In this document: positions 15,731 through 63,682 of the stretch, one piece after another | Numbering within the stretch: the first letter of the stretch is position 1 | Layout of the letters: every line of letters starts with the position of its first letter | Assembly: GCA_964512095.1 (NCBI GenBank) | Contig: CAZEIH010000001.1 | Location: 126,091 to 190,090 of the forward strand | Direction of reading: 5' to 3' | DNA length: 64,000 bases | From: an uncultured Oscillospiraceae bacterium | Lineage (GTDB): Bacteria > Bacillota > Clostridia > Acetivibrionales > DTU013 | Made by a program: the position numbers and the translations under genes | The notes under the pieces: model-generated | Told to the model about the DNA's origin: nothing | Seen by the model: only the letters and a program-made list of their open reading frames with translations | Databases searched by the model: none

Positions 15731-15886
15731 TTATACCGCTTTTGAGTTGCTCCCCTGATATTTTGCTTTTGTTGCTTCCCCTCCCCTGATATGCCTTTCT
15801 GCTTTGTTTTCCTCCAGAATGACCCTCACGTCTTCAGCAAGCTCAGGGCTCACCCTTAGCAATCGTTCCGTTACATCCTTGTGCAC
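15731..15886 (-). CDS. spoIIID: spoIIID 3' segment (C-terminal 49 codons plus stop) of a split gene
   Basis: Encodes VHKDVTERLLRVSPELAEDVRVILEENKAERHIRGGEATKAKYQGSNSKAV*, colinear with the C-terminal half of SpoIIID (KSTVHKD...RGG.GGE motif region). The upstream part of the 95-aa track ORF is element DNA. Confidence 0.85.
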   Translation of the reverse strand: MHKDVTERLLRVSPELAEDVRVILEENKAERHIRGGEATKAKYQGSNSKAV

Positions 15887-17489
15887 GGTTGTCAGTATCG
15901 GCGACGCTATTTTCAACAGGCGACATGAGGAATGTTCCCGACAAAAGAATAGGGAAGTTAAGGCCTTCCACGTCCTCGCTGATGTTGAAATAAACGTAGA
16001 TCTCATCCACAGACACAATTTTAATCTCTTTGATTATTTTCTTTAAGTCAGCATTCTCAATGCTTTCAGTAAAACTAAATTTATCAAAAATCTCAATAAA
16101 CTGCTTTAGACTCTCCCTGATCTGACGATTCAGTTCTCTGGTCTTGTCGGTGCTATCCAGCTTGAATGATAACCTTTCAATTTCGGCATTGATGGGAACC
16201 ATATCCTGCTTCGCTTCATCCATGGTAATAAGACCATTCACAGCCAATTCCTTTAGCCTGTCACGTTTGCTATGCAACTCACTTAGGTCTGCTTTCGCCT
16301 CATCAAGATCAATGCCATTGTTATCCCTGATATACTCCCTGATTAAACTATTGCACTTGCGCTCAACCTCATCAAAGAAAGATACTTTTCCCTCTACCAG
16401 ATAACTAAAAAGACTGTCCAATCCTTCTTTAAGCCAATCTTCATTTATTCTGGTGTATTCAGATTCGCAGCGGTTTTTGCCATAGGCACTTCTTTTAGAG
16501 CATGTCCACCAAACATACAACGGGCCATCTTTAGAGTGCCTTCTTTGATAACGCCTGTAAGAAAAACCGCATGAACCGCATTTAATTAAGTTGGAAAATA
16601 AATGCTTATTGCTCCTGCGTGAAAATATGTCTTGATAGAGTTCAGCGTTTTTCTTCGTCTGTTCCAGAGCCTTATAAAATTGCTCATCAGATATGATTCT
16701 AAACTCCGGTCTGTCCACCACATACCACTCTTCTTCCGGGTTTTCCTTGCGCTTGTTGGTAAATATATCTGTACTGCTCTCTTTGCCATTGATGACTTGG
16801 CCAATATATATTTCATTTCTCAAAATATTACCCACCGTGTTTTGCGACCAATTATAGTTGGGCTGTCCGTCTTTCAGTTTTTTGGTCTGCACTCGGTTCT
16901 CAAATAAATAGGAAGCGATTCTTGCCATGCCCCATTCTTCTTCCGTATATAAGTCGAAAATTTTCTTGACCCATTCGCTTTCTTCAGGGTTAGGCTCTAA
17001 ATTATATGCATCTATCCTATCATAGCCAAAGACGAAATTAGGCACACGGCCTTTTTCTTTGCCGAATTGCTTTCCAAACTTCACTTTTTCTGAGATGCGC
17101 TGGGATTCACTTTCAGCCAGCATAGCCATAAGATTTAAAGTGAAACCATCAATATCCTTGCCTTCGCCCATATTGACAAGATGCAGATTCACTCCATACA
17201 AGCTCAATTCTCTAGTAACGGTGATAAAATCAAGTGTGTTTCTAAAAAGCCTGCTGATATCTTTAACATAGAGCTTTTCAAATTCTCCACGCTTGGCGGC
17301 TTTTCTCAATCGCTGCAAATCTTTTCTGTTTTGCATCTTTGTAGCAGACTTGCCCTTATCACAATAAATCGCTACTAGTTCATCTCCCCTTTTGGGAATA
17401 TAGCTTTCAAAAAACTCACGCTGATTTTCCAGCGAGCTTTGTTGTTCTTCTTTATCTGTACTAACCCTAATATAAGCGACAGCCTTCAT
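15843..17489 (-). CDS. Large serine recombinase (rec1)
   Basis: 548 aa. N-terminal resolvase catalytic motif AVAYIRVSTDKEEQ, a recombinase domain, and a Cys-rich zinc-ribbon (CGSCGFSYRR...WWTCSKR...C). RBS GAGAGGTG. The ORF reads across attL into host DNA. Confidence 0.9.
   Translation of the reverse strand: MKAVAYIRVSTDKEEQQSSLENQREFFESYIPKRGDELVAIYCDKGKSATKMQNRKDLQRLRKAAKRGEFEKLYVKDISRLFRNTLDFITVTRELSLYGVNLHLVNMGEGKDIDGFTLNLMAMLAESESQRISEKVKFGKQFGKEKGRVPNFVFGYDRIDAYNLEPNPEESEWVKKIFDLYTEEEWGMARIASYLFENRVQTKKLKDGQPNYNWSQNTVGNILRNEIYIGQVINGKESSTDIFTNKRKENPEEEWYVVDRPEFRIISDEQFYKALEQTKKNAELYQDIFSRRSNKHLFSNLIKCGSCGFSYRRYQRRHSKDGPLYVWWTCSKRSAYGKNRCESEYTRINEDWLKEGLDSLFSYLVEGKVSFFDEVERKCNSLIREYIRDNNGIDLDEAKADLSELHSKRDRLKELAVNGLITMDEAKQDMVPINAEIERLSFKLDSTDKTRELNRQIRESLKQFIEIFDKFSFTESIENADLKKIIKEIKIVSVDEIYVYFNISEDVEGLNFPILLSGTFLMSPVENSVADTDNRAQGCNGTIAKGEP
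15880..15886. other. attL core: left copy of the 7-bp direct repeat TGTGCAC
   Basis: Identical heptamer at 38024-38030. It lies exactly at the point where SpoIIID-like coding breaks off. Confidence 0.75.
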
Positions 17490-22282: not shown

Positions 22283-23632
22283 CTAATATTTTGACCGTTC
22301 CAACGCCATCCCAATAATCTTATCCGCATGATCCGCCATAAACAACGGAATATTCAGCAGGTCATCATCCATGCGCAGGTTATTCAGTGAAAAGCGAACA
22401 CGCAGCTTTACCTTATCTTCAAATTTTTCCTTGTACTTTTTAAGGCTCCGGCTTTCCACATTGCTCTCGGATTTAACCTCTACCGGCAAAATGTCATTTT
22501 CTCTTTGGATAAGAAAATCAACCTCATACCTTGGGTTATCCATTGTCCAATAACGTGGCATAGCTTCAAACTGGTTTTGTAACGCTTGCAGGACATAATT
22601 CTCACTTAAAGCCCCTTTAAACTCTACAAACAGCCTATTACCTTCACCAAATGCCGAGGGAGCTAATAGAGATAATCTACGCAATAATCCTACATCGACC
22701 ATATATAGTTTAAATGCAGACAAATCGTCATAGGCGGAAATAGGCAGCCCCGGTGCGGTGCTGCGGTATATCTTATAAGTCAAGTTGGCATCACAAAGCC
22801 ATTGCAGAGCATCTTCGTATTCCCTCGCTCTGGCTCCTTCCTTGACAACCTTATAAATAAACTTTTTATTTTCCCTTGCCAGTTGTGAAGGGATTGATTT
22901 CCATATCATTGAGATTTTCGGAAAATCCTTAGGATCAGGGTGCTTGGCAAAATCTCTTTCGTATGCGCCTAAAATATTGGATAGCACCTGCTGCATCAGC
23001 TCCACATCTCGGTCTTGCACCCAAGAGCGAACAGACTCCGGCATACCGCCTGTTACAAAATACATTTTAAGCTTTTCGTATAATGGATTGAAAAACGCCT
23101 CGGGAATCGGCTCAATCCTGTCCACGCTTTTCATATAATCAGCAAAGTTACCGTCGCCATTGGCCATTAAAAACTCCGTAAATGTCATTGGCATAATTTC
23201 TAAAAAATCCACCTTGCCAACTGGAAAAGATGCTGGCTTAGACAATGCAATGCCCAAAAGTGATCCTGCGCAGGCTACATGGTAGTGAGGCGTGTTCTCG
23301 CAGAAATACTTCAGTGTGTTCAGTGCGTTAGGGCATTCCTGTATCTCATCAAAAACAATGAGCGTGTCCTCCGGATTGTCTTGTTTGATGACTTCTCCGC
23401 TGGCCATCATCAGATTTTGCAGAATACGCTCCACATCCTTGGTGCTTTCAAAAAACTGTTTATATTCTGGATGCTCGTCAAAGTTGAAATAGGCCATATT
23501 TTCATAATGGCGTTTTGCAAATTCCTTGAGTAGCCAAGTCTTGCCCACCTGACGCACCCCTTTTAAAATAAGGGGTTTTCTATATTTGGAGTTTTTCCAG
23601 TCCAGCAGTTTTTGCATAGCCAGTCTTTCCAT
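22283..23632 (-). CDS. AAA ATPase with DUF4143-type C-terminal domain (copy 1)
   Basis: Walker A GVRQVGKT and Walker B LIVFDEIQ. The likely start is MERLAMQK (23632) after RBS GGAGGTGG. About 25 substitutions versus copy 2, by eye. Confidence 0.8.
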   Translation of the reverse strand: MERLAMQKLLDWKNSKYRKPLILKGVRQVGKTWLLKEFAKRHYENMAYFNFDEHPEYKQFFESTKDVERILQNLMMASGEVIKQDNPEDTLIVFDEIQECPNALNTLKYFCENTPHYHVACAGSLLGIALSKPASFPVGKVDFLEIMPMTFTEFLMANGDGNFADYMKSVDRIEPIPEAFFNPLYEKLKMYFVTGGMPESVRSWVQDRDVELMQQVLSNILGAYERDFAKHPDPKDFPKISMIWKSIPSQLARENKKFIYKVVKEGARAREYEDALQWLCDANLTYKIYRSTAPGLPISAYDDLSAFKLYMVDVGLLRRLSLLAPSAFGEGNRLFVEFKGALSENYVLQALQNQFEAMPRYWTMDNPRYEVDFLIQRENDILPVEVKSESNVESRSLKKYKEKFEDKVKLRVRFSLNNLRMDDDLLNIPLFMADHADKIIGMALERSKY

Positions 23633-23929
23633 ACCGCCACCTCCAAGATAACACATTATTATACAACTTTTGCGTATGATAATCACATTTATATTGATAA
23701 GTATAGCTGAAATTCAAATTCTAGTCAAGAGTAATCACACTATTATATGAAATAGATAGATAAAAATCACATAATCGTGTAATTTTACTCTATAGTCTTT
23801 AACATAACAAAACCTGCCCCGATAAACAAGGCAGGTTTTGCTTACTTTCATGTATTCTTAATTTCAGCTTTTAAGCCGCATATTCAAACACCCAATGCAA
23901 CCGACACTGACTGTTACTACTGTTTGTAC
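22295..23929. repeat. Direct repeat copy 1 (right-end module of unit 1: ATPase gene, upstream region, hairpin, att arm)
   Basis: Collinear with 36353-38030. High nucleotide identity through the ATPase gene and lower identity in the upstream region. Similarity starts at CCG(T/C)TCCA...GCCATCCCAATAATC. Confidence 0.8.
23809..23839. terminator. Symmetric hairpin AAAACCTGCC-N11-GGCAGGTTTT (bidirectional terminator-like), copy 1
   Basis: Perfect 10-bp stem flanked by an A-run and a T-run. Lies 25 nt downstream of the rec2 stop. An identical hairpin is at 37900-37930. Confidence 0.6.
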
Positions 23930-25585
23930 CGTTGTTCCTATCGGTGTCGGTGTTTTCTTGCTTTTTAATGCTCTGCCTTTTATAGTGCGTCTGACTTCTG
24001 CATCGCAGTCGCTCTCTAGTATTATAGGAAAGAACAGGCCATTAATCTCGTCATCTACTTTAAAGTATACATGCAACTCGCTTGCACTTATGACTCTGAT
24101 TTCCTTAACCACACTCCTAAGACCATTATTTGTAAGACCATCTTTAAACGAAAAACTATCAAAGTTGCGAATAAAACCTTTAACATTTTCTTTGACTTTA
24201 CGTGTGAGTTCGGCGGTCACATCCTCTGCGTGAAGTATGGTTGATATACGCTTGATGTCAGCATCTAAGGCTGCCATATCCTTCTCGCCCTCATCCATAC
24301 CAATCATACCTTTTTTCACCATAGTTTTGACACGCTCACGCTGTGCTTGTAAGTCTTTCAGTTCTTTGTTCAACTCATTAAAATTCAGCCCTGTGGCGTT
24401 TTTGAGGTACTCTTTGATTACATCACTACACTTAGCCTCAATCAGCTTAAAAAAGGCTTCACGGTCTTGCACTAAACTGTCAAATAAAAGAGTTAAGCCT
24501 CTGAGAACATCTTCTTCTTCCACTCTTATATGCTCTGCTGTACACCTTGCACTACCATAAGCCTGTCGCTTACTGCACACCCACCAATAGTAGTACGGTC
24601 CCGTCTCACTATACTTACGCTGATAGCGTCTATACCCGCCACCACAGGAGGTACACTTTAATAGGTTTGAAAGGGTGTGGTCCTCACTACGGCGTGAAAT
24701 CTTTCGATGCCCGTGTTCATCAGATGGAAATTTCTCTGCGTTCTCTTCTATAATCCGTTGTGCTTTCTCAAATTGCTCATCAGATATGATACGAAAATCA
24801 GGTCTTTCTGTAACAAACCAATCTTCTGTATCCATCGTTACGCGTTCGCCCGTATAAATGGACTTTACATTCTCCTTGTTATTTATAATAAGCCCTGTAT
24901 ATAAGCGGTTTTTTAGTATACATGAAACAGTATGTTGAGTCCAGTTATAGTTGGGTTCACCGTTCTTTTTCTTTTTTGTTACTACTCGGTTCTTATATAA
25001 GAAGTCGGCTATACGGCTCATTCCCATATGCTCTACTGTATATAAATCAAATATCTTTTTGACCCAGTAGGCATCCTTATCTGGTTTTAAAGTATATTTA
25101 TCAACACGCTCATAGCCAAAAACGAAGTTAGGCACTATCCCTTTTTTCTTACTGATGTTTTTACCGAACTTGACACGCTCACTCATTTTTTCAGACTCGT
25201 TTTCTGCCAATAAAGCCATTATACTGAGTGATAAGGAATCCACATCTTTACCTTTCTCGCCCTGACCGGCTAAGTGTAGTTTAATCCCTAACCCGTCCAA
25301 CAACTCTCTCGTAAAGGTTATATAATCGAGTTGATTTCGGAATAACCTTGATATTTCCTTTGCGTAAATCTTTTGATAACACCCTTTTTTACCATCACTT
25401 ATTAACCTCTGTAATTCCCTTCTATTTTTGGACTTAGTTGCACTCATACCCTCATCGCAGTATATTTCAACTAACTCGTCACCCCGGTCTGCTATGTATT
25501 TCTCAAAGAACTCCCGCTGGTTCTTCAGCGACAGGGCTTGTTCTTCTTTATTTGTACTAACCCTTATATACGCAACAGCCCTCAT
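23864..25585 (-). CDS. Large serine recombinase (rec2)
   Basis: 573 aa. AVAYIRVSTNKEEQ catalytic motif and a zinc-ribbon (CTSCGGGYRR...WWVCSKR...C). Roughly half the residues are identical to rec1 by eye. The ORF spans the internal attP-like site. Confidence 0.9.
   Translation of the reverse strand: MRAVAYIRVSTNKEEQALSLKNQREFFEKYIADRGDELVEIYCDEGMSATKSKNRRELQRLISDGKKGCYQKIYAKEISRLFRNQLDYITFTRELLDGLGIKLHLAGQGEKGKDVDSLSLSIMALLAENESEKMSERVKFGKNISKKKGIVPNFVFGYERVDKYTLKPDKDAYWVKKIFDLYTVEHMGMSRIADFLYKNRVVTKKKKNGEPNYNWTQHTVSCILKNRLYTGLIINNKENVKSIYTGERVTMDTEDWFVTERPDFRIISDEQFEKAQRIIEENAEKFPSDEHGHRKISRRSEDHTLSNLLKCTSCGGGYRRYQRKYSETGPYYYWWVCSKRQAYGSARCTAEHIRVEEEDVLRGLTLLFDSLVQDREAFFKLIEAKCSDVIKEYLKNATGLNFNELNKELKDLQAQRERVKTMVKKGMIGMDEGEKDMAALDADIKRISTILHAEDVTAELTRKVKENVKGFIRNFDSFSFKDGLTNNGLRSVVKEIRVISASELHVYFKVDDEINGLFFPIILESDCDAEVRRTIKGRALKSKKTPTPIGTTVQTVVTVSVGCIGCLNMRLKS
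23899..23951. other. Internal attP-like dyad site at the unit 1 / unit 2 junction
   Basis: AACCGACACTGACTGTTACTACTGTTTGTACCGTTGTTCCTATCGGTGTCGGT, with outer inverted repeat ACCGACAC/GTGTCGGT. 38 of 53 positions match the attP reconstructed from the element-side arms of attR plus attL. Confidence 0.6.
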
Positions 25586-36343: not shown

Positions 36344-37690
36344 TCAACCCATCCGCTCCAGTGCCATCCCAATAATCTTATCAGCATAATCCGCCATAAA
36401 CATCGGAATATTCAGCAGGTCATCATCAAGGCGCAGGTTATTCAATGAAAACCTAACACGCAGCTTTACCTTGTCTTCATATTTCTCCTTGTACTTTTTA
36501 AGGCTACGGCTTTCCACATTGCTCTCGGATTTTACTTCCACTGGCAAAATATCGTTTTCTCGTTGAATCAGAAAGTCCACTTCATATCTTGGGTTTTCAA
36601 CAGTCCAATAGCGTGGCATGGCTTCAAACTGGTTTTGTAGTGCCTGCAGGACATAATTCTCACTTAACGCGCCTTTAAACTCCACAAACAGTCTGTTTCC
36701 CTCGCCAAAAGCCGAAGGAGCCAAGAGAGATAGTCGGCGCAACAATCCTACATCTGCCATATACAACTTGAATGCAGACAAATCATCGTATGCTGAAATA
36801 GGCAACCCCGGTGCGGTACTGCGGTATATCTTATAAGTCAAATTGGCATCGCACAGCCATTGCAGGGCATCTTCATATTCCCTTGCTCTGGCACCGTCTT
36901 TAACAACCTTATAGATAAATTTTTTATTTTCTCTTGCAAGCTGCGAAGGGATTGACTTCCAGATCATAGATATCTTTGGAAAGTCTTTAGGTTCAAGGTG
37001 TTTTGCAAAATCTTTTTCATATGCCCCTAGAATGTTGGACAGCACTTGTTGCATCAGCGCCACATCCCGGTCTTGCGCCCAGGAGCGAACAGACTCAGGC
37101 ATACCGCCTGTTACAAAATACATTTTTAGTTTTTCATAAAGGGGATTGAAAAAGGCCTCTGGGATAGGCTCAATACTATCCACGCTTTTCATATAATCAG
37201 CTAAGTTACCGTCACCATTAGCCATTAAAAATTCAGTAAAGGTCATTGGCATAATTTCTAAAAAATCTACTTTTCCAACTGGGAAGGACGCTGGCTTAGA
37301 CAATGTTATCCCCAATAACGATCCTGCACAGGCCACATGATAAATGGGCGTGTTCTCACAGAAATATTTCAATGTGTTCAATGCATTAGGGCATTCCTGT
37401 ATCTCGTCAAAAACAATGAGCGTTTTCTCTGGTCTGTCTCGTTTAATGATTTCACCACTGGCCATCATCAGATTTTGCAAAATGCGATTGACATCTTTGG
37501 TACTTTCAAAAAACTGCTTGTATTCAGGGTGCTCATCAAAGTTAAAATAAGCCATGTTTCCATAGTGGCGTTTTGCGAATTCCTTGAGAAGCCAAGTCTT
37601 GCCGACTTGACGTACCCCTTTTAAAATAAGGGGTTTTCTATATTTGGAGTTTTTCCAGTCCAGCAGTTTTTGCATAATCAGTCTTTCCAC
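36344..37690 (-). CDS. AAA ATPase with DUF4143-type C-terminal domain (copy 2)
   Basis: Near-identical paralog of 22283-23632. Likely GVG start VERLIMQK at 37690 after GGTGGTGG. Confidence 0.8.
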   Translation of the reverse strand: MERLIMQKLLDWKNSKYRKPLILKGVRQVGKTWLLKEFAKRHYGNMAYFNFDEHPEYKQFFESTKDVNRILQNLMMASGEIIKRDRPEKTLIVFDEIQECPNALNTLKYFCENTPIYHVACAGSLLGITLSKPASFPVGKVDFLEIMPMTFTEFLMANGDGNLADYMKSVDSIEPIPEAFFNPLYEKLKMYFVTGGMPESVRSWAQDRDVALMQQVLSNILGAYEKDFAKHLEPKDFPKISMIWKSIPSQLARENKKFIYKVVKDGARAREYEDALQWLCDANLTYKIYRSTAPGLPISAYDDLSAFKLYMADVGLLRRLSLLAPSAFGEGNRLFVEFKGALSENYVLQALQNQFEAMPRYWTVENPRYEVDFLIQRENDILPVEVKSESNVESRSLKKYKEKYEDKVKLRVRFSLNNLRLDDDLLNIPMFMADYADKIIGMALERMG

Positions 37691-37899
37691 ACTACCACCA
37701 CCAAAATAACACATTATTATACAAGTTTTGCGTATGATAATCACACTATATTGATATAGCATAGTCCAATTTCCAATATAAGTCAAGTCTAATCACGTTA
37801 TTATAAATAAATTGCTGCAAAAAATCACATTCTTATGTACTTCCTTGTCGATAGCCTACTCTGCATTATCGTATTTTAATCTACATCCTGCTGCAAAAC

Positions 37900-38505: not shown

Positions 38506-39345
38506 TTATCCTTCAGGAAGATATCCGTTGGGTTCTTGATTTACATCGTCCTTAAGTACCTCAAAGTGTAGATGAGATTGCTCAGCAGACTCGTCCATTG
38601 CAGTATTGCCAATGCTTCCGATTATCTCACCCTGCTTCACCTTTTGATTTACAATGACTACATCATCTGCTGCCAGGTTCCTGTAGAGGGTTTTTAACCC
38701 GTTCTCGTGATCAATAACTATAGAAATTCCATAGAACTGATCATTTCTCACATCGCAAACCACACCGTCGGCAACTACTTTTACCGGAGTTCCCCTGTCA
38801 GCTGCAATATCAATGCCCTGATGAGCTCGCCATTCCTCAAGGGTTTTGGAATACACAAGCTTATCCATTGCATATTCCAGCGATATCTCGCCATCAACAG
38901 GCATTATAAAGCTTTGTTTTTTAGGCTTTTCAGGAGTGGTTTTCGCAGGTGCATCCTTATCCTTTGGCGCAGCCTCCTTGTCACCATCATCTGGATTCAC
39001 TTTATTGTCCTTGCTAACAGACGCTGGACTTCCAATATCTGAGTCCTCTTCAGGTGTTAAAGCTACAGGGTCTGTATTTAGCTTTTCCGACAACTTTTCA
39101 GCTGCATTCAGTGCCGCATCCTGTGCGTCAAGACCATCGATAGAACCATCAGAAAGATTTTTCGCTTCATAATCAGGGACCCTGGTAACAGCATTACGAG
39201 TAGTGACAAAAACATAGGTTCCAGCCACAACCGCTATACACAGCAACAGGACGATATAAAAGCCTCTCTTGTCTAAAAAATCCTTAAATTTCTTACCTTT
39301 TTCCTCTGGAAATGATTTCTTCATATTCACATGTTCCACCTCCAT
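38506..39345 (-). CDS. M23/LytM peptidase-domain membrane protein (SpoIIQ-like by position)
   Basis: N-terminal TM, a low-complexity linker, and LytM motifs HQGIDIAADRGTPV and HLHFEV. Located between spoIID and spoIIID as in other clostridia. The exact start is uncertain. Confidence 0.7.
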   Translation of the reverse strand: MEVEHVNMKKSFPEEKGKKFKDFLDKRGFYIVLLLCIAVVAGTYVFVTTRNAVTRVPDYEAKNLSDGSIDGLDAQDAALNAAEKLSEKLNTDPVALTPEEDSDIGSPASVSKDNKVNPDDGDKEAAPKDKDAPAKTTPEKPKKQSFIMPVDGEISLEYAMDKLVYSKTLEEWRAHQGIDIAADRGTPVKVVADGVVCDVRNDQFYGISIVIDHENGLKTLYRNLAADDVVIVNQKVKQGEIIGSIGNTAMDESAEQSHLHFEVLKDDVNQEPNGYLPEG

Positions 39346-39420
39346 ATATTATTGTTACCGCATATGGCAACTATATACATATGGAAGTAAAATTAGTTGT
39401 GGCAGGCGACATACAAACAA

Positions 39421-40431
39421 TTAGTCCGGTTTTATCATAGCTTCGTAGTCAGACATAGAAATGATGTCTACTCCTGTATAGTAATGCCGTAATATCTCCT
39501 TGTAGGTACCACCGGTCTTAGCAAGGCTGTTGGCCCCCCACTGGCTCATCCCCACACCATGGCCATGTCCGGTGGTTGTTATCCTCAGCAGGTCATCCTC
39601 AACAAATTCTATATTAAAGCAGGCTGACCTGAGACCCAGGATAGATCTAAATTCTGTGCCCTTAAGAATAACATTACCGATTTTCAATGTTTTTACCCTT
39701 CCGCCTGTAGTATAATCAACTATACCAATTTTATCCATTACATCTAGCTCCAAATCCGTATAAACCTTTGATAGCTTATCAATCAGTTCCTCCCCACTAA
39801 TTGAAATTGTAGCAGTATAGCCCCTTGAGGCTTCATCTCCACTGCTTTCAACACTTTTAAGATAGGGTACACTGGTACCAGCCCATACATCCTCTGCATT
39901 CTCTGTCCTTCCGGAGCTGCTTGCATGAAAAAGAGTGTTTGCTACCTTGCCTTGGTATACTACTATCATTCCCCTAGTTTCATCCACCGCTTTACTGATT
40001 TTACTCCAGTTTCTTGAGGCGAATAGCACATTCCATTTTTTCATCGCATCTTCCCTGCTAACCCATGCCTGACAATGGGTAGAGTCAGTGCATATTTCTA
40101 CGCCATCATGAACCCCCTGTTTGGATCTATACGTCTCAGACATACGTCCGTATGCAAAGGTCCTGGCCGCAACAGCCTGCGCCTTAAGTGCTTCTAAATC
40201 AAAATCAGCAGGCATTTCAGCTGCTACTACACATTTTATGTACTCCTCTAAATTGACCTTTTTACTTGCTTCAGTTATATGGTTATAAACTGTTATTTCA
40301 TAGTCCCTGGCCGGCTCCTTTATATCCTTTAGCTCTTGCACGGGATCGGGACCACAGCTTCTTACAATAATCATGGGAAGCAGAATAACGATAAGGATCA
40401 TTACCCCCGCATAGTAAATGAGCTTTTTCAT
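39421..40431 (-). CDS. spoIID: Stage II sporulation protein D (SpoIID/LytB-domain lytic transglycosylase)
   Basis: N-terminal TM. EALKAQAVAARTFA, NTLFHASSSGRTENAEDVW and GHGHGVGMSQWGAN motifs. Likely start MKKLIYY at 40431 after GGGGGG. Confidence 0.85.
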   Translation of the reverse strand: MKKLIYYAGVMILIVILLPMIIVRSCGPDPVQELKDIKEPARDYEITVYNHITEASKKVNLEEYIKCVVAAEMPADFDLEALKAQAVAARTFAYGRMSETYRSKQGVHDGVEICTDSTHCQAWVSREDAMKKWNVLFASRNWSKISKAVDETRGMIVVYQGKVANTLFHASSSGRTENAEDVWAGTSVPYLKSVESSGDEASRGYTATISISGEELIDKLSKVYTDLELDVMDKIGIVDYTTGGRVKTLKIGNVILKGTEFRSILGLRSACFNIEFVEDDLLRITTTGHGHGVGMSQWGANSLAKTGGTYKEILRHYYTGVDIISMSDYEAMIKPD

Positions 40432-40482
40432 CAGGACCCCCCCTATAGCCATAAACTGCTGTTTTGATAATATATATTCGCA

Positions 40483-40513
40483 TAAAAAAAAAGTATGCGA
40501 ATGCCCGCATACT
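40483..40513 (-). terminator. Rho-independent terminator after murA
   Basis: Stem AGTATGCG / CGCATACT followed by a 9-nt T run on the minus strand. Confidence 0.7.
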
Positions 40514-40556
40514 CTGTCCTATACTCTATCGAAGACGGCCTCTTTAGGTTGACTAC

Positions 40557-41819
40557 CTACTCTTCTCCTGACCTTGTGATAACCGCTCCAAGCTTCCTCA
40601 GCTTCTCGTCTATTTGTATATAACCTCTGTCTATGTGCTCGATATCCGATATTTCGGTTATCCCTTCGGCACAAAGCCCCGCAAGAATCAGAGCGGCTCC
40701 TGCCCTGAGGTCTGTAGCCTTCACCTTAGCCCCGGTTAGACCGGCACACCCTTCTATTATAGCACTTCGGCCCTCAACCTTTATATTTGCACCCATTCTT
40801 TTCAGCTCGCAAATATGCATGAAGCGGTTTTCAAATATGGTTTCTATAACCATACTGGTACCAGCCGCCATGCTGAGCAATGAAGTCATTTGCGACTGCA
40901 TATCCGTAGGGAATCCCGGATATGGATGGGTTTTTATATCAACAGCGTTAACCCTACTTCCTCTTACCCTTATGGAGGTAAGCTCCTCCGAAACCTCTAC
41001 CCCGGCTTCCCTAAGCTTTGCGGTGACAGGCTTCAGATGATCTGTAACAACATTTTCAACAACAACATCTCCCCCGGTAATAGCAGCTGCAACCATAAAA
41101 GTCCCTGCTTCTATTCTATCAGGTATGATTGTATGGCTGGCTGCTTTGAGATCGCTGACGCCATGAATCTTTATCGTATCTGTTCCAGCTCCCTTGATTT
41201 CAGCCCCCATAGATATCAGATATGTGGCCAGGTCCACTATTTCAGGCTCTATTGCTGCATTTTCTATGACAGTATATCCCTGAGCCAAGGTAGCAGCCAT
41301 CATTATATTTTCAGTTGCTCCCACACTGGGAAAATCCAAATACACCTTTCCTCCAGTAAGCCGGCCTTTCATTCTAGCTTCAATATAGCCATGTCCCTGT
41401 GTAATAGACGCCCCAAGGGCCGTAAACCCCTTCAGATGCAGATCTATGGGTCGAGAGCCTATAGCGCACCCTCCGGGCAGAGATATCCTCACATGCCCTG
41501 TCCTAGCTAGCAATGGGCCGGCAACCAAAAAAGAAGCCCGCATCTTATTAACCAGCTCATATGGTGCTGTTGTATTTGTCAGAGAACTACAACAAACCTC
41601 CAGCCTGCTCTGGTCATTAGACAGAGTAATGGAAGCACCCAGTGACTTTACAAGATCACACATTATTCTTACATCATTAAGATAGGGAATTTCATCAATG
41701 AGACTACTGCCATCGGCTAGCAATGCCGCCGCTATGATTGGAAGCACCGAATTCTTTGCTCCGCTGATACGAACATTGCCCTTAAGCGGCTTGGTATCCG
41801 AAATTATCAGTTTGGACAA
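40557..41819 (-). CDS. murA: UDP-N-acetylglucosamine 1-carboxyvinyltransferase
   Basis: 420 aa. SGAKNSVLPIIAAALLA, LPGGCAIGSRPIDLHLKG (catalytic Cys) and FPTDMQSQ motifs. Confidence 0.95.
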   Translation of the reverse strand: MSKLIISDTKPLKGNVRISGAKNSVLPIIAAALLADGSSLIDEIPYLNDVRIMCDLVKSLGASITLSNDQSRLEVCCSSLTNTTAPYELVNKMRASFLVAGPLLARTGHVRISLPGGCAIGSRPIDLHLKGFTALGASITQGHGYIEARMKGRLTGGKVYLDFPSVGATENIMMAATLAQGYTVIENAAIEPEIVDLATYLISMGAEIKGAGTDTIKIHGVSDLKAASHTIIPDRIEAGTFMVAAAITGGDVVVENVVTDHLKPVTAKLREAGVEVSEELTSIRVRGSRVNAVDIKTHPYPGFPTDMQSQMTSLLSMAAGTSMVIETIFENRFMHICELKRMGANIKVEGRSAIIEGCAGLTGAKVKATDLRAGAALILAGLCAEGITEISDIEHIDRGYIQIDEKLRKLGAVITRSGEE

Positions 41820-41866
41820 GTCATTCTCCCCTTTATCATCATTTGTATTTTTGTCAAACTACTCTG

Positions 41867-42622
41867 TCAGTACACTGTGGTTATGACCGGTGTTGCAAGC
41901 CATATGTAGGTTTTGCCTTCATATGAGTTATATCGGACTGCCATGTTCATATTAATGCTTTTTCCGTTCACATTCACAGTCTCGCTAATAGATGGCGAAA
42001 ACGCCGAAACACTAACAAGACCGTTATCATGAATTCCTTCAACCTTATTAGCACCAATGCTTTCAAAAGCTCTTATGTACAAATCCTCAATGGCATCCTC
42101 CTCCAATTTGCCAGCAATACTACCCGCCAAAGATATATTAGTCTTATAATCAATCCCTCGTTTATCCAAGCATGCTACTATAGCCGCTACATTCTTTTTA
42201 ACAGAAGGCTTGGTAGATGTATCAAAAAAGCTAATGACTACATTACTCTTATCCTTATCCTTTTTTGATCCTGATACTGAAAGCAATATGGTTTTATTTC
42301 CATCTATTATGTAATTAATCTCCACTCCCTGTGTATAGTCATTTTCGATGGTATTAAAAACCGGAACCTCTTTTGAATACACAGCTCCGATACCACGAAC
42401 AATTTCTTCAAGGAGGATGGATGCTGTACCCTCGTCCATAACCTTCCTTTCCGATACTCCTCGTACATATATCTCTGAACTGACAGCAGCTGCACCAGTT
42501 TCGTAAAATGCCTTATATATGGCATCAGCCCCAGAACTAAAATCATTCTCCTTCTGTATCATTATTGTTAAAACGGAAATAAATAAAGCAATAGCAAATA
42601 TAAGCAGACAAATTTTTTTCAT
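41867..42622 (-). CDS. Hypothetical secreted / membrane-anchored protein (same position as ywmB upstream of murA in Bacilli)
   Basis: 251 aa with an N-terminal hydrophobic anchor. The assignment rests on synteny only. Confidence 0.4.
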   Translation of the reverse strand: MKKICLLIFAIALFISVLTIMIQKENDFSSGADAIYKAFYETGAAAVSSEIYVRGVSERKVMDEGTASILLEEIVRGIGAVYSKEVPVFNTIENDYTQGVEINYIIDGNKTILLSVSGSKKDKDKSNVVISFFDTSTKPSVKKNVAAIVACLDKRGIDYKTNISLAGSIAGKLEEDAIEDLYIRAFESIGANKVEGIHDNGLVSVSAFSPSISETVNVNGKSINMNMAVRYNSYEGKTYIWLATPVITTVY

Positions 42623-52081: not shown

Positions 52082-52417
52082 TTACTTGCGCTTTGATGGT
52101 ATGTCCTTATAGTGTGCCTTGCTAACGAGTATCTGGTTTCTTCCATTTTTAAAAGACTTTCGCACATCATACCCACGCATGACAAGAGTATCATATATTT
52201 CATCAGTCTGATTATAGTAATTGTTCCCAATGTCTAACACAAGGGTTTCTCCAGGTCTAAGCTCATTTGAAATGTCATTTAAGGTTGTGTCAAACTGCAA
52301 GCTCTCGGCATTAATAACCTTGCTATCAAGCTCCTCATCATACATAGGCCTGTTCGCGCTTGTGTCAAATTCACTATTATCTCTATTACTTAAGCCCTTA
52401 CTCCTTGAATAATCCAT
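52082..52417 (-). CDS. Hypothetical small protein
   Basis: 111 aa. RBS GGGAGGA 8 nt before the ATG. Confidence 0.5.
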   Translation of the reverse strand: MDYSRSKGLSNRDNSEFDTSANRPMYDEELDSKVINAESLQFDTTLNDISNELRPGETLVLDIGNNYYNQTDEIYDTLVMRGYDVRKSFKNGRNQILVSKAHYKDIPSKRK

Positions 52418-53154: not shown

Positions 53155-53676
53155 TTACCAGTTACCCGAATTAGCACTTCTATTTCGTCTTGAAACCAGT
53201 ATTAGTCCTCCAACAAGTAGTAGTACAGGTAAAAGAAGTCCTAAGTCAAATATACCCAAAATGAATCTAAATGCCATAACAATGAAGCAGGCTACAGCCA
53301 TACCACCAATTATTCCTATAGCTGTCATAAGCCCCCTTGGCTTTCCACTGTGCAGATAAAGCTGGAATAGTCCCACTGCTACACCCAAAAGGTAAATCGG
53401 CCATGTAATAGCAGCAAACCGCCAGTTTGTAGACACTTCAAAGAAAAAGAGTAGGCTATAGGTAGTCAGTATCCCTCCTGGTACAAGAAGTCCCGGAGCC
53501 TTCAAGCTAATATAGTAGGCAAGCTCAAAGCCCGCCCCCACTAGAAAAATGATAATTGGCCAAAAATCCCCTGAATCAAGTGACAATAAAGGCCTGTTAA
53601 ATAAAAAGCGAGCTGCTAGAAGCAAACCACCTGCTATTATAAGCAGTCCTCCCAGTGATGTATTATTCCTTCTCAT
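53155..53676 (-). CDS. Small polytopic membrane protein (LiaI/LiaF-like TM protein, tentative)
   Basis: 173 aa with about 5 TM segments. N-terminus SLGGLLIIAGGLLLAARF. Confidence 0.5.
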   Translation of the reverse strand: MRRNNTSLGGLLIIAGGLLLAARFLFNRPLLSLDSGDFWPIIIFLVGAGFELAYYISLKAPGLLVPGGILTTYSLLFFFEVSTNWRFAAITWPIYLLGVAVGLFQLYLHSGKPRGLMTAIGIIGGMAVACFIVMAFRFILGIFDLGLLLPVLLLVGGLILVSRRNRSANSGNW

Positions 53677-53870
53677 ATAATTACCTCCAATATGCCCGTA
53701 TTATTAATCCGACTATTCAAGCGATTAATAAAGGCAGATGACCAGTGACGTCACTAATTCTATTCATGCCTCCAGATACCTGATTAGTAGTGATTCTAAT
53801 TATTGATACTAAATACCGGGATATATGTCTGATATTTTGAGAGTAATAGATATCCTCAGAACACTCGTTT

Positions 53871-53946
53871 TGTGGAAATGTTTCTGTGGATAATGTTGAT
53901 AAGTCTGTGCATAACCTTGTTTTTTGGGACATACGGCTGTGGATAA
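53871..53946 (-). promoter_or_regulatory. Cluster of four co-oriented DnaA boxes
   Basis: Minus-strand TTATCCACA at 53893-53885 and 53946-53938 (both perfect), TTATGCACA at 53914-53906 (one mismatch), and ATTTCCACA at 53879-53871 (two mismatches). Confidence 0.6.
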
Positions 53947-53963
53947 CCCTCTATTTACCCATT

Positions 53964-56546
53964 TTAAATTATGTTTTGGATACCCTCTTCAGGAATCGGT
54001 CTTGAGCAGTAGTAGCCCTGGACCATATCGCAATTATGCATAGCTAGGTATTCGAACTGCTCCTTCTTTTCAACCCCTTCAGCTACCACAAGAAGATTTC
54101 TTTTGTGACCTATGTGGATTATAGATTCTATCAGGCTGTTATCATTTTCAGGGATATCATCGACAAAGCATTTGTCAATTTTTATTGTATTAATCGGTAA
54201 TTGCTTGAGATAGCTTAATGAAGAGAAGCCCTTCCCAAAATCATCTATTGAGAACCTAACTCCTATTGATTTAAGCTCGTGTAGCTTCCGTAGGTTAATA
54301 TCAACAGTCTCCACAAGCTTTGATTCTGTTATTTCCAATTCAAGTAAGGATGGCTCAAGCCCTGTACTTTTAATGATATCCTCTACCATATTGACAAAGT
54401 CGGTCTGCATTAGCTGTATAACTGATATGTTTACAGATATTCCAAACTTCTTGTTGTATCGATTGTTTAGATTTACCATAAACTCGCAAGCTGTTTTCAT
54501 TACCCACTTACCTATCTGCACTATCAATCCCGTCTCCTCAGCAACACTAATAAATCTAAGTGGTTGAATGAGGCCGCGTTCAGAATGCATCCATCTTAAT
54601 AATGCCTCAAAGCTAACGATTTTTCCTGTGGCGAGATCAACCTGGGGCTGGTAGTGAAGAACAAGCTCCTCATTTTCTATTGCACGCCTCAAACCATTCT
54701 CCATTTCTATCCTCTCAGCATACTCATCATTCATTTCCTTCCTGAACATGATATGCATATTTTTGCCCTCTTTCTTTGCATGGTACATAGCAACATCTGA
54801 ACTCTTCATCATATCCTCGATAGTAGAAGCATGGTCAGGATAAATACATATACCACAACTGGCCGAAACATGGAAGTGATTTCTCATGACATTGAAGGGC
54901 TCTTGGAATACACTCATAGCCTTTGTAACTTTATTGTCTAAATCCTCCATGGAATCTATTCGTCTAATAAACACAGCAAACTCATCACCTTCAAACCTGG
55001 CGACCATTTCATTGTCATTGAAAACTCCCTTTAGGCGCCGCCCTATCTCCACCAGTAGCATATCACCCATTGTATGACTAAAGAAGTCATTGATATACTT
55101 AAAGTTATCCAGATCAAGATACAGTAAAGCACATTTTTTAGCCTCCCCAATCCCAATGCCAGCAAGAACCTTACCCACCTCATTGAACAGCGCCGCCCTA
55201 TTTGGCAAGCTAGTCAGTTGATCCCTATATGCAAGCTGCCTAATGGTTTCTTCAGTAGCTGCCAGCTCATCGTACACAGCCGTCAGCTCATCGAAGCTGT
55301 CCTGAAGTATATTCTCCTGTGATACTCTTTTAGATATATCAATTCCCAGAATCTCAACAACTCCATCGTTATCCTTGTCCTCAATAGCATTACAGTAGAT
55401 ATGGATTACCTTACTATCTCCCCGACAAAGGGCAAGATCAAAGCTTATGTTGTCATTACGACCCTGTCCTTCAGCAAAGGCGCTTCGCAGTAGCTCAACG
55501 TCCTTTTCAGACAGCAATTCAAAAACGTTCTGAACCTTGGTGGCTCCGTATTTATCAAAGTAGACCAGGCTATCCTCTGCATTCCTGTTTGCAGTCAGTA
55601 TAGTCCCGTCTCTTTTAATTGTTAATGCAATTAGATTGGTAAAATCCGCAACTCTATAGGATTTCATCTGCTGCCTCAGCAAATCTTTTTCCAATCGTCT
55701 GGAACGGGACATGATAAAAGCAATAATGAATGACACAGCAGATATCACTATGAAAAGGATTGCAAAGACAATATTAAGCTTACTAAAAACAGCGCTTTTA
55801 GGCGCTGTCACTGCAATTGACCATGCTGTTCCATCAATAGGGCAAAAACCCATGTAGCGTTTCTCACCATTGTAATTATATTCACCAGTTCCGCTACCGC
55901 CTACAATCATAATTTTCTCAAGAGCTACAAGCTTCTCATTCTCAGGGTCGCTTAATGAGTTCATTATTTCATTCTCAATACCATATACTAGACGCCTGTT
56001 CTTATGTGCAACAATATTTCCCACATCATTAATAATGAATGAATATCCGCCATCACTAAGCTTTATTTTATCGGTAATAGTACTAAGTATATCAGCGTCG
56101 TATGTTGTATAAAGCACTCCTGATAATACTCCGTCATCATATATAGGAGCAGCAAAAACCAATACCATGGTCCCATCGGCACGGCTTTTAATCGGATCCG
56201 ATATGCTAGATTTTCCTTTTAGAGCATTTTGAAAGTACTCCCGATCTTTGACATTCAGCCTAAATCCATCGGTAGCAATAGAGTTTCCTTCTAAATCAGA
56301 TATACTTAACCTTTTATACCTGTCTAGGGGAAGCTGCTTTTCCAGCTCCTCTAGACGCTTTTCTATCGGAAGACTGGTATCACTGACTATACTGCTAGCA
56401 GCAACTGACCTTGTCTCCGACAAGCGTCCCTCTACATAGGTGCTTACAGTTGCTGCACCTTGATTAGCAAACCTTATAAGGGAGTTCTCCATATCATGTA
56501 TTAGTATCTTGGTAACGGCATAATAAAGCAGAATGCCAACAACCAA
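53964..56546 (-). CDS. Cache-TM-PAS-GGDEF-EAL signalling protein (c-di-GMP turnover)
   Basis: 860 aa from a TTG start. The GGDEF domain carries RFEGDEFAV. The EAL domain has FEALLRW, ELEITE and DDFGKGFSSL. The frame is open a further ~25 codons upstream with no canonical start, so the N-terminal TM may be incomplete. Confidence 0.8.
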   Translation of the reverse strand: MVVGILLYYAVTKILIHDMENSLIRFANQGAATVSTYVEGRLSETRSVAASSIVSDTSLPIEKRLEELEKQLPLDRYKRLSISDLEGNSIATDGFRLNVKDREYFQNALKGKSSISDPIKSRADGTMVLVFAAPIYDDGVLSGVLYTTYDADILSTITDKIKLSDGGYSFIINDVGNIVAHKNRRLVYGIENEIMNSLSDPENEKLVALEKIMIVGGSGTGEYNYNGEKRYMGFCPIDGTAWSIAVTAPKSAVFSKLNIVFAILFIVISAVSFIIAFIMSRSRRLEKDLLRQQMKSYRVADFTNLIALTIKRDGTILTANRNAEDSLVYFDKYGATKVQNVFELLSEKDVELLRSAFAEGQGRNDNISFDLALCRGDSKVIHIYCNAIEDKDNDGVVEILGIDISKRVSQENILQDSFDELTAVYDELAATEETIRQLAYRDQLTSLPNRAALFNEVGKVLAGIGIGEAKKCALLYLDLDNFKYINDFFSHTMGDMLLVEIGRRLKGVFNDNEMVARFEGDEFAVFIRRIDSMEDLDNKVTKAMSVFQEPFNVMRNHFHVSASCGICIYPDHASTIEDMMKSSDVAMYHAKKEGKNMHIMFRKEMNDEYAERIEMENGLRRAIENEELVLHYQPQVDLATGKIVSFEALLRWMHSERGLIQPLRFISVAEETGLIVQIGKWVMKTACEFMVNLNNRYNKKFGISVNISVIQLMQTDFVNMVEDIIKSTGLEPSLLELEITESKLVETVDINLRKLHELKSIGVRFSIDDFGKGFSSLSYLKQLPINTIKIDKCFVDDIPENDNSLIESIIHIGHKRNLLVVAEGVEKKEQFEYLAMHNCDMVQGYYCSRPIPEEGIQNII

Positions 56547-62524: not shown

Positions 62525-63682
62525 TCACCCAACTGCTCCTATCATGATTCGGAATATATGAGTAAAACTATTTTCAATTCCTATAAAACCACACACCTGA
62601 GCATAAAACCACATTCCAATAACCAAAAATCCAGGAATCAGCCAAAGAAGCCCTTTTACACTGACAGCTGAAGTCCTTGGTGCCTTACCACCAGTTATGC
62701 TGGTTTGGCCAGTTACGATAGCTTGGCCCATTACGCTGGCTTGGCCGGCAATGTTGGTTTGGCCATTCCCGGCACCCGTCATCGGAGCTACTCCTACTAC
62801 CGGCTTTAGTGCCGTAGTCTTAGGATTCAGCTTTATCAGCGCATAAACTAGCAATACAAGCGCCATAGCAAAAAAGATAAACATGAACCCGTAGGTAACA
62901 ATGACTATTCGCAGCTGCTGAGGTGGAAAGGAAGAAAACATATCAAAAATGTCGCTGATATCGTTCCCTGTTTGTTGAACCAAGTCAGAGGATTTCTGAA
63001 AAATCTCCAGAAGCTTATTGGATACGTATCCCGCAGTAACTGCTATTGCGTTATTTGTAAAATGGGCAAACATACCGCAGAATAGCGAGTTGGTTTTATA
63101 TACGATAAACCCTATTATTACTCCTAGTACAAAGGTACCAAATATCCTTTGAATATCCAAATGCATAAGACTAAAAAGAAAAGCAGCCATAAATATGGAT
63201 TTTACCGGTCCTAAATCTTCAAAGCCCCTTTGAACAACACCCCGAAAAAGAAATTCCTCACAAATCCCTGCACTGCCTGCAATAACAAGTATGCTCAACA
63301 GGAGCCCAAGTACGTTATCGCCAACTGGCATCGCCTCTACAACTATTTTCCCAAATATCTTATCCACAATAAAAAGATTCAGTATATTAAATACGGCAGC
63401 CAAAGGGATAGCAAAAACAACAATCCAAAATGTTACGAAGAAATTCATAAATCTCGATTTATTTAACCTTAAAACTTCCTTCATCCTAACTCTTGAAAAT
63501 ATTAGGAATAATAAGGTCGGAAAGGATATTAATATAAACTCCGTAATAAGTATACCTGAATGGAACTCATTAGACTGAACTCTGTAGCCTAAAAGTACGA
63601 AAATTATAATGGTAATTGAAAACAGAATACTGGTTTGAGCTACACTGGGGTTTTTTGCGCTCTCTACTTTGAAATAATTCAA
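62525..63682 (-). CDS. CPBP-family intramembrane glutamic endopeptidase (CAAX protease-like)
   Basis: Motifs CEEFLFRGVVQ, FLFSLMHL and AHFTNNA. Polytopic, with a C-terminal G/Q/T-rich repeat region. Confidence 0.8.
   Translation of the reverse strand: MNYFKVESAKNPSVAQTSILFSITIIIFVLLGYRVQSNEFHSGILITEFILISFPTLLFLIFSRVRMKEVLRLNKSRFMNFFVTFWIVVFAIPLAAVFNILNLFIVDKIFGKIVVEAMPVGDNVLGLLLSILVIAGSAGICEEFLFRGVVQRGFEDLGPVKSIFMAAFLFSLMHLDIQRIFGTFVLGVIIGFIVYKTNSLFCGMFAHFTNNAIAVTAGYVSNKLLEIFQKSSDLVQQTGNDISDIFDMFSSFPPQQLRIVIVTYGFMFIFFAMALVLLVYALIKLNPKTTALKPVVGVAPMTGAGNGQTNIAGQASVMGQAIVTGQTSITGGKAPRTSAVSVKGLLWLIPGFLVIGMWFYAQVCGFIGIENSFTHIFRIMIGAVG

Follow-up and report, generated by a model that had tools for sequence, protein, structure and literature searches.

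Control of replication initiation from outside the origin is understood in few models, the datA and DARS sites of Escherichia coli and the DnaA-box clusters (DBCs) of Bacillus subtilis. In E. coli, datA is a site of DnaA-ATP hydrolysis and DARS1/2 are sites of DnaA reactivation. These sites are non-origin clusters of few boxes in which the precise arrangement matters, and an IHF bend between the boxes is essential. In B. subtilis, two of the six DBCs measurably affect initiation, with effects that vary with dosage and position; a conserved array therefore need not control replication. DnaA of this organism is also an established transcription factor at sites of the sda, ywlC and yydA type, and at the sda promoter both proximal and distal boxes contribute. 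Both non-origin DBCs and DnaA-regulated promoters are already known, and the authors of the B. subtilis study stated that they found no structural features by which DBCs could be distinguished. The DBC downstream of gcp, which has abutting co-oriented pairs and a consensus box 43 bp upstream, was reported to be highly conserved in Bacillus. A cluster index, A, with a threshold of 0.3 for a DBC (Ishikawa et al. 2007, PMC2533591), separated eight DnaA-bound regions of B. subtilis, in which it ranges from 0.36 to 1.64, from the remaining genome (PMC2533591).

Here we describe an array of predicted DnaA boxes in the 64-kb window, which is the whole stretch of DNA that was analyzed. Like the B. subtilis DBCs, the array is intergenic and lies outside oriC, contains at least four close boxes within one mismatch of the consensus TTATNCACA, has a cluster index in the same range and is conserved in relatives, with copies that precede a promoter and copies that are flanked by convergent genes. 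Unlike them, the arrays described here belong to uncultured Clostridia, have other neighbor genes and are known from sequence; they also have a fixed 1 + 3 + 1 architecture, all co-oriented, with a phased outlying box, in many lineages and at many loci. We consider that the array is probably an evolutionarily maintained and autonomous non-origin DnaA-box cluster, a putative DnaA site that may also modulate the adjacent promoter.

Results

The box array in the intergenic region

The array comprises five co-oriented boxes on the minus strand and one weak inverted box (Table 1), and lies between a GGDEF-EAL gene and a membrane-protein gene, the same flanking genes that the earlier note on this DNA had named. 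The four minus-strand boxes of that note were all recovered at its coordinates and on its strand, but its count of four had left out box 3 and the weak inverted box 6. Box 1 sits 17 nt past the stop codon of the GGDEF-EAL gene. The start-to-start distances are 32 bp (3 turns) between box 1 and box 2 and 21 bp (2 turns) between box 2 and box 4. Box 6, the most doubtful of the predicted boxes, is found 12 nt beyond box 5 within the conserved segment AAAACGnnnGTTCTGAGGA; its end adjoins the predicted promoter of the membrane-protein gene at a distance of 18 bp from the -35 element.

Table 1 Predicted boxes, flanking genes and expression signals around the array
Feature	Position	Strand	Description
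dCache-GGDEF-EAL gene	53964-56546	-	Upstream of the array, co-oriented
Box 1	53938..53946	-	TTATCCACA, perfect consensus; outlying box
Spacer between box 1 and box 2	53915..53937	-	23 nt, GCCGTATGTCCCAAAAAACAAGG; A6 tract immediately before box 2
Box 2	53906..53914	-	TTATGCACA; fits the classical consensus TTATNCACA
Box 3	53894..53902	-	TTATCAACA; 3 nt past box 2, abutting box 4
Box 4	53885..53893	-	TTATCCACA, perfect consensus
Box 5	53871..53879	-	ATTTCCACA, two mismatches; 5 nt past box 4
Box 6 (weak, inverted)	53850..53858	+	ATATCCTCA, two mismatches; minus-strand reading TGAGGATAT
Predicted sigma-A-type promoter	53803..53831	-	-35 CAGACA 53831-53826, 17-nt spacer, -10 TATCAA 53808-53803; predicted transcription start near 53796
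RBS of the membrane-protein gene	53688-53684	-	GGAGG
Membrane-protein ORF	53155-53676	-	173 aa, multi-pass; DUF5668 / LiaI-LiaF-like TM family

All the box variants have counterparts among the DnaA boxes of B. subtilis. The sequences of box 3 (TTATCAACA, p = 2.3E-05 in the B. subtilis DnaA PSSM table), box 2 (TTATGCACA) and box 5 (ATTTCCACA) are listed among the boxes of DnaA-bound regions with good to moderate PSSM scores, and ATTTCCACA is given as a predicted box in one bound region. The box 6 sequence, ATATCCTCA, is present in supplementary file 4 of PMC4447404, which we took as S2, the boxes behind the DnaA PSSM. For boxes 1-4, all of which lie within one mismatch of TTATNCACA, the cluster index calculated by hand is 10.5/9.67 = 1.09 (affinities 4 + 1.5 + 1 + 4 = 10.5; mean distance 9.67), well above the DBC threshold.

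Perfect boxes number three in the 64-kb window, and two of them are inside the array. The third TTATCCACA (63360-63368, plus strand) is isolated within a CAAX-protease-family gene (62525-63682, minus strand) and, being without neighboring boxes, is probably a chance match. We generated 300 first-order Markov versions of the window and counted same-strand boxes within 80 bp. None of the 300 reached four boxes with at most one mismatch (the maximum was three, once), and none reached five boxes with at most two mismatches (the maximum was four). The background is not negligible, since the whole window holds 34 one-mismatch boxes compared with 21.5 in the shuffles; nevertheless, the simulations place the array far above chance.

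Conservation of the array in relatives

A search of GTDB species genomes by protein homology alone gave 80 loci with a homologue of the membrane protein. The same boxes, in the same order and with the same spacing, are found upstream of about 20 orthologues, down to ~54% protein identity, and the array is next to the gene in every orthologue with 54% identity or more for which the upstream sequence is long enough, except one (L012; see below). The array is missing from all the more distant homologues among the 80 loci, which include those of Ruminiclostridium, Acetivibrio and Clostridium. In the alignment of 20 orthologous regions, the conserved blocks are the boxes, AAAACGnnnGTTCTGAGGA, the promoter core and the RBS, and the rest has diverged. 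The promoter core, TCAGACAT-N13-(G)AGTATwA, i.e. TCAGACAT-N13-(G)AGTATTAT, was found in all orthologues; a consensus promoter scan of the window had missed this promoter, which was later inferred from the conservation. Downstream synteny is kept as well (a convergent shikimate kinase gene, a 111-aa ORF and a giant surface protein gene), and the upstream gene differs.

The conservation extends to the individual boxes as follows. Box 4 is near-invariant, with TTATCCACA in 18 of the 20 orthologous regions and TAATCCACA in the other two (L015 and L020). Across the orthologues, box 2 changes at position 5 only (G/A), which is the N of the DnaA consensus. Box 5 is a better match in most orthologues, ATATCCACA or CTATCCACA, and box 6 reads TGAGGATAA, with one mismatch, in seven relatives. 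Four strains of the species of the window have eight variable intergenic columns, none of which falls within 53850-53946; the same-species contigs (L001-L003) were too similar to inform beyond this SNP distribution. The comparison with related genomes that had been proposed as a check came out in favor of the cluster, as the individual boxes and their spacing recur in about 20 species-level relatives, and the array is also found in relatives that lack the gene. In three orthologous regions (L016, L019 and L023), the stretch from array to promoter contains an insert of ~100 nt, at ~60-120 nt past box 5. These inserts contain further boxes, e.g. TTATCCACA and AATCCACAA, so the array is extended in these relatives.

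Distribution and geometry of the array in Clostridia

A search pattern for boxes 2-4, GTTATRCACAGNNTTATCMACNTWATCCACA, in which box 1 was not included, matched at least 120 metagenome contigs, and gave no match in the viral contigs scanned. Together with the GTDB loci, the metagenome matches were sorted into at least 75 sequence contexts by a crude clustering, so that the contexts are not all phylogenetically independent; boxes 2-4 are present by construction in the metagenome matches. These matches are in the main not further copies of the locus in the window, as the membrane-protein gene lies downstream in three of the 120 listed (L158, L192 and L194), and they are not oriC, as none of the 120 listed has an adjacent dnaA.

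The commonest context is a co-oriented hpf gene 140-600 nt downstream of the array (19 contexts among the matches listed); the membrane-protein gene is downstream in 20 contexts, a number inflated by the way those loci were fetched. The product in the hpf context is a long-form ribosome hibernation promoting factor (HPF), confirmed by Pfam, and secA is often the next gene. This context was seen in Coprococcus, Lachnospira, other Lachnospiraceae and Candidatus Metalachnospira / Christensenellales (L084, L087, L088, L092 and L121 are examples from Lachnospiraceae). MAGs with the array include JAEYRV01, CAZBEQ01 and JAEYOP01. In three further contexts among the matches listed, hpf is 3-4 kb downstream. 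Two arrays (L125 and L167) sit at the tsaD 3' end of a convergent tsaB-rimI-tsaD cluster, like DBC[gcp-ydiF] of B. subtilis at the 3' end of gcp. Other downstream genes account for 17 contexts among the matches listed, including those for YigZ, an amino-acid-binding protein, ATP synthase subunit a, a ProA-like dehydrogenase, HisD and a WecG-family transferase. None of yvyD, hpf, secA, liaF and liaI was found among the B. subtilis DnaA-bound regions in the Smith and Grossman supplements. Our literature search did not find DnaA boxes discussed together with hibernation promoting factor, and found nothing comparable for Clostridia apart from oriC studies. The phased architecture across families, the recurrent placement before hpf and the persistence of the array despite swaps of its neighbors appear to be undescribed.

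A co-oriented box 1 is present in 67 of the 75 contexts, compared with 9.6% of random positions. Its distance from box 2 falls into discrete classes: 50 contexts have a gap of 21-24 nt, 15 a gap of 31-34 nt and two a gap of 43-44 nt, and there are no contexts with gaps of 10-20, 25-30 or 35-42 nt. Outside the clade of the window, the same three classes hold 23, 15 and two contexts, respectively. Because the gap grows in steps of ~10.5 bp, box 1 would be placed on the same helical face as box 2. This helical phasing, which we infer from the distances, suggests a defined DnaA complex and not sites that are loosely grouped. A tracts or T tracts of four or more residues are enriched in the 16 nt preceding box 2: 38 of the 75 contexts have one, compared with a background of 20.5%. 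In many lineages outside the clade of the window, the spacer after box 1 opens with a semi-conserved AAAAAG-nGC motif; either this motif or the A/T tract could bend the DNA intrinsically or be bound by another factor.

Separation of the array from the membrane-protein gene

The earlier note had suggested, as an alternative to titration, that the array controls a promoter of 53155-53676. In the strictest form of this idea, the array would be a dedicated DnaA operator of the membrane-protein gene whose sole function is a response to replication status, as at the sda, ywlC and yydA type of sites where B. subtilis DnaA is known to act as a transcription factor. The arrangement fits such an operator, given that the array is co-oriented with the gene, stops short of the predicted -35 element, and is found upstream of the gene in about 20 species; elsewhere in Clostridia, too, it typically precedes a co-oriented gene by 140-600 nt, most often hpf. 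The sda promoter likewise has several DnaA boxes upstream of the -35 element of a small gene, but its boxes are in mixed orientations, whereas the product here is a 173-aa membrane protein and the array here is separable from the gene. Sda is reportedly a 46-aa kinase inhibitor that is unrelated to this membrane protein.

The separability of the array argues against the operator as follows. First, the promoter core occurs without an adjacent array. In L012, the core is directly upstream of the gene and the array is 2.2 kb off, past two ORFs on the opposite strand. The core is also present in L038, L051, L052 and L056, which are distant homologues without boxes; the -10 element is a perfect TATAAT in L052 and L056. 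Second, the array is retained where the downstream gene is another one or is missing. The diagnostic signature of box 5 and AAAACGnnnGTTCTG occurs in metagenome relatives with other downstream contents: the array precedes a dCache-HAMP-MCP (chemotaxis receptor) gene in L090, L115, L133 and L179, and in L105, L109, L185 and L198 no gene intervenes before the shikimate-kinase terminator, which lies ~50-250 nt beyond the array. Third, no fixed distance separates box 5 from the -35 element: the values vary continuously, from 26 to 49 nt in fifteen species and from 90 to 155 nt in five, whereas the spacing within the array is quantized. Altogether, array and gene occur together in about 20 species, and arrays without the gene as well as genes or promoters without an adjacent array also occur.

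Judged by these sequence comparisons, the conserved unit is the array and not the neighbor gene. Promoter control of 53155-53676 becomes less likely as the primary role, since the array persists with another gene or none and the promoter core occurs without the array; modulation of whichever promoter lies downstream is probably real as a secondary effect. The operator model is unlikely in our assessment, but it stays a serious rival because most copies of the array precede a co-oriented gene.

Discussion

An autonomous DnaA-binding role is favored here because the array is the conserved unit and some of its copies lie between convergent genes. Its primary role would most likely be that of an independent chromosomal site that takes up the initiator or modulates its availability or activity; candidate roles are titration, control of DnaA activity and local chromosome structure, as discussed for B. 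subtilis. This agrees with the earlier note, which had read the region as a putative DnaA-binding cluster of the B. subtilis non-origin type, and the conservation of boxes and spacing in about 20 relatives together with the cluster index strongly supports that reading. In the mechanism that we propose, DnaA would dock on the consensus boxes 1 and 4 and then fill the weaker boxes between them cooperatively, with boxes 1, 2 and 4 predicted to share one face of the helix. The occupied array may then act as a DnaA sink or modulator, as proposed for the B. subtilis DBCs and E. coli datA. Since 18 bp separate the array from the predicted -35 element, DnaA occupancy would probably also modulate the membrane-protein promoter, in a geometry resembling that of the activated sda promoter. 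Against a sink, most arrays precede a co-oriented gene 140-600 nt downstream, an arrangement that a transcription-factor role fits at least equally well.

Alternatively, a protein other than DnaA might bind the repeats, or the array might have a structural role as a roadblock or terminator substitute for the GGDEF-EAL gene or as a nucleoid-organizing site. The terminator scan detected no intrinsic terminator between the GGDEF-EAL stop and box 1 (53947-53963), so that upstream transcription may run into the array; several arrays are located between convergent genes, and the semi-conserved spacer with its A-tract could serve another factor. However, the motif is the DnaA consensus, the variants tolerated in it match those that DnaA tolerates, and a roadblock would still be mediated by DnaA. 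We know of no other regulator for the 9-mer of the array, and we regard an explanation of this kind as distinctly improbable.

There is far less to be said for a second or displaced chromosomal origin, or for the relic origin of an integrated plasmid or phage. Tandem co-oriented consensus boxes do look like the box arrays of origins, the abutting co-oriented boxes in particular recall the basal unwinding system of oriC, and genes for a DnaD-domain protein and a DnaI-like protein lie 6.5 kb away. In contrast to an origin, the GC skew is negative across the window with no switch in 64 kb, the genes on both sides are on the minus strand and run one way through the site where an origin would have a skew inversion and divergent genes, and neither dnaA nor dnaN was found among the scanned ORFs of the window. 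There are no adjacent replication or recombination genes and no conserved unwinding element. Runs of at least three DnaA-trios within 100 nt on either side are absent from all 20 orthologues, and a DnaA signature (DHTTV) is absent near 119 of the 120 arrays listed, the exception being one match in L100 that is ~3.9 kb away on the opposite strand. The lack of matches in viral contigs also speaks against a phage relic. Without dnaA, DnaA-trios or a GC-skew switch, the array is not an origin. The suggestion of the earlier note that the proximity of the DnaD and DnaI genes might be meaningful gained no support, as neither gene was found in the flanks of the relatives, which are mostly 3 kb long and fall short of the 6.5-kb distance. 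Finally, functionless chance clustering of A+T-rich 9-mers, for which the excess of one-mismatch boxes over the shuffles could be cited, deserves practically no credence, because tens of species and 75 contexts share the array down to the single box, with quantized spacing, and no simulation produced such a cluster.

Going further than an autonomous DnaA-box cluster at this locus, it is conceivable, and we raise it tentatively, that the arrays form a class-wide Clostridial DnaA module of fixed geometry, placed at several loci across families, in which DnaA would assemble into a complex with a specific activity beyond that of a generic sink. It is the strictness of the geometry that suggests a specific DnaA nucleoprotein complex. 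The module might be described, with the same reserve, as an outlying box 3, 4 or 5 turns away from a triple with 12/9-bp spacing, usually followed by direct or inverted boxes. Its activity could be a datA-like inactivation of DnaA, a DARS-like reactivation, or a dedicated switch that ties the status of the initiator to ribosome hibernation through hpf. The likeness to datA and DARS is one of logic alone: the phased spacer and the A-tract suggest that the boxes must share a helix face, but the box arrangement differs and no IHF site can be claimed here. To our knowledge, Firmicutes are without IHF.

The at least 75 contexts of one phased array represent dominant organisms of anaerobic digesters and the human gut, and make up a natural data set in which two questions become testable: whether spacing and phasing define a functional off-origin DnaA complex, and whether DnaA ties replication status to ribosome hibernation through hpf in Lachnospiraceae. 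For annotation, the intergenic region is better described as a probable DnaA-binding site than as a promoter feature private to the downstream gene.

Neighboring genes and the wider window

The 173-aa membrane protein has no significant match in Pfam or NCBIfam; its match to Pfam PF18917 is sub-threshold (E = 0.023). Many of its homologues hold precomputed PF18917 and PF22570 domains, and the family assignment is based on these because of the sub-threshold match of the protein itself. An Rfam gathering scan of the window yielded a tRNA only, and no RNA element in the intergenic region. A 16-codon ORF and a 71-aa ORF that overlap the region were dropped, as they are not conserved in the alignment, and readings of the conserved motifs by eye as sigma-H, sigma-K or sigma-E elements were dropped, as the spacing to their partner elements is not conserved. 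The 5' leader of the membrane-protein gene contains a perfect 12-bp palindrome, AGTGACGTCACT (53744-53755, minus strand), within a stretch of ~90 nt that is confined to the species of the window; the closest relatives (L004, L005 and L014) lack this stretch.

Farther away, a tRNA-Arg gene, the DnaD-domain gene and the DnaI-like gene are located at 60.2-62.5 kb of the window. The 111-aa ORF (52082-52417, minus strand), which is without a family match, is syntenic across the clade between the shikimate kinase and giant surface protein genes. A cluster of YwmB-like (DUF1779), MurA-family, SpoIID and M23 peptidase genes (38506-42622, minus strand) lies on the strand of the array, ~11 kb downstream. 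In B. subtilis, ywmB-murAA-spoIID is said to lie ~15 kb downstream of the ywlC-ywlB DnaA-box cluster, and the placement here is possibly the positional equivalent of that arrangement. Two large serine recombinases and two paralogous AAA_14/DUF4143 ATPases (15843-17489, 22283-23686, 23864-25585 and 36344-37786) flank the region at 26-36 kb, which has a higher G+C content, a positive skew and plus-strand genes for S-layer-homology proteins, and looks like inserted or mobile DNA.
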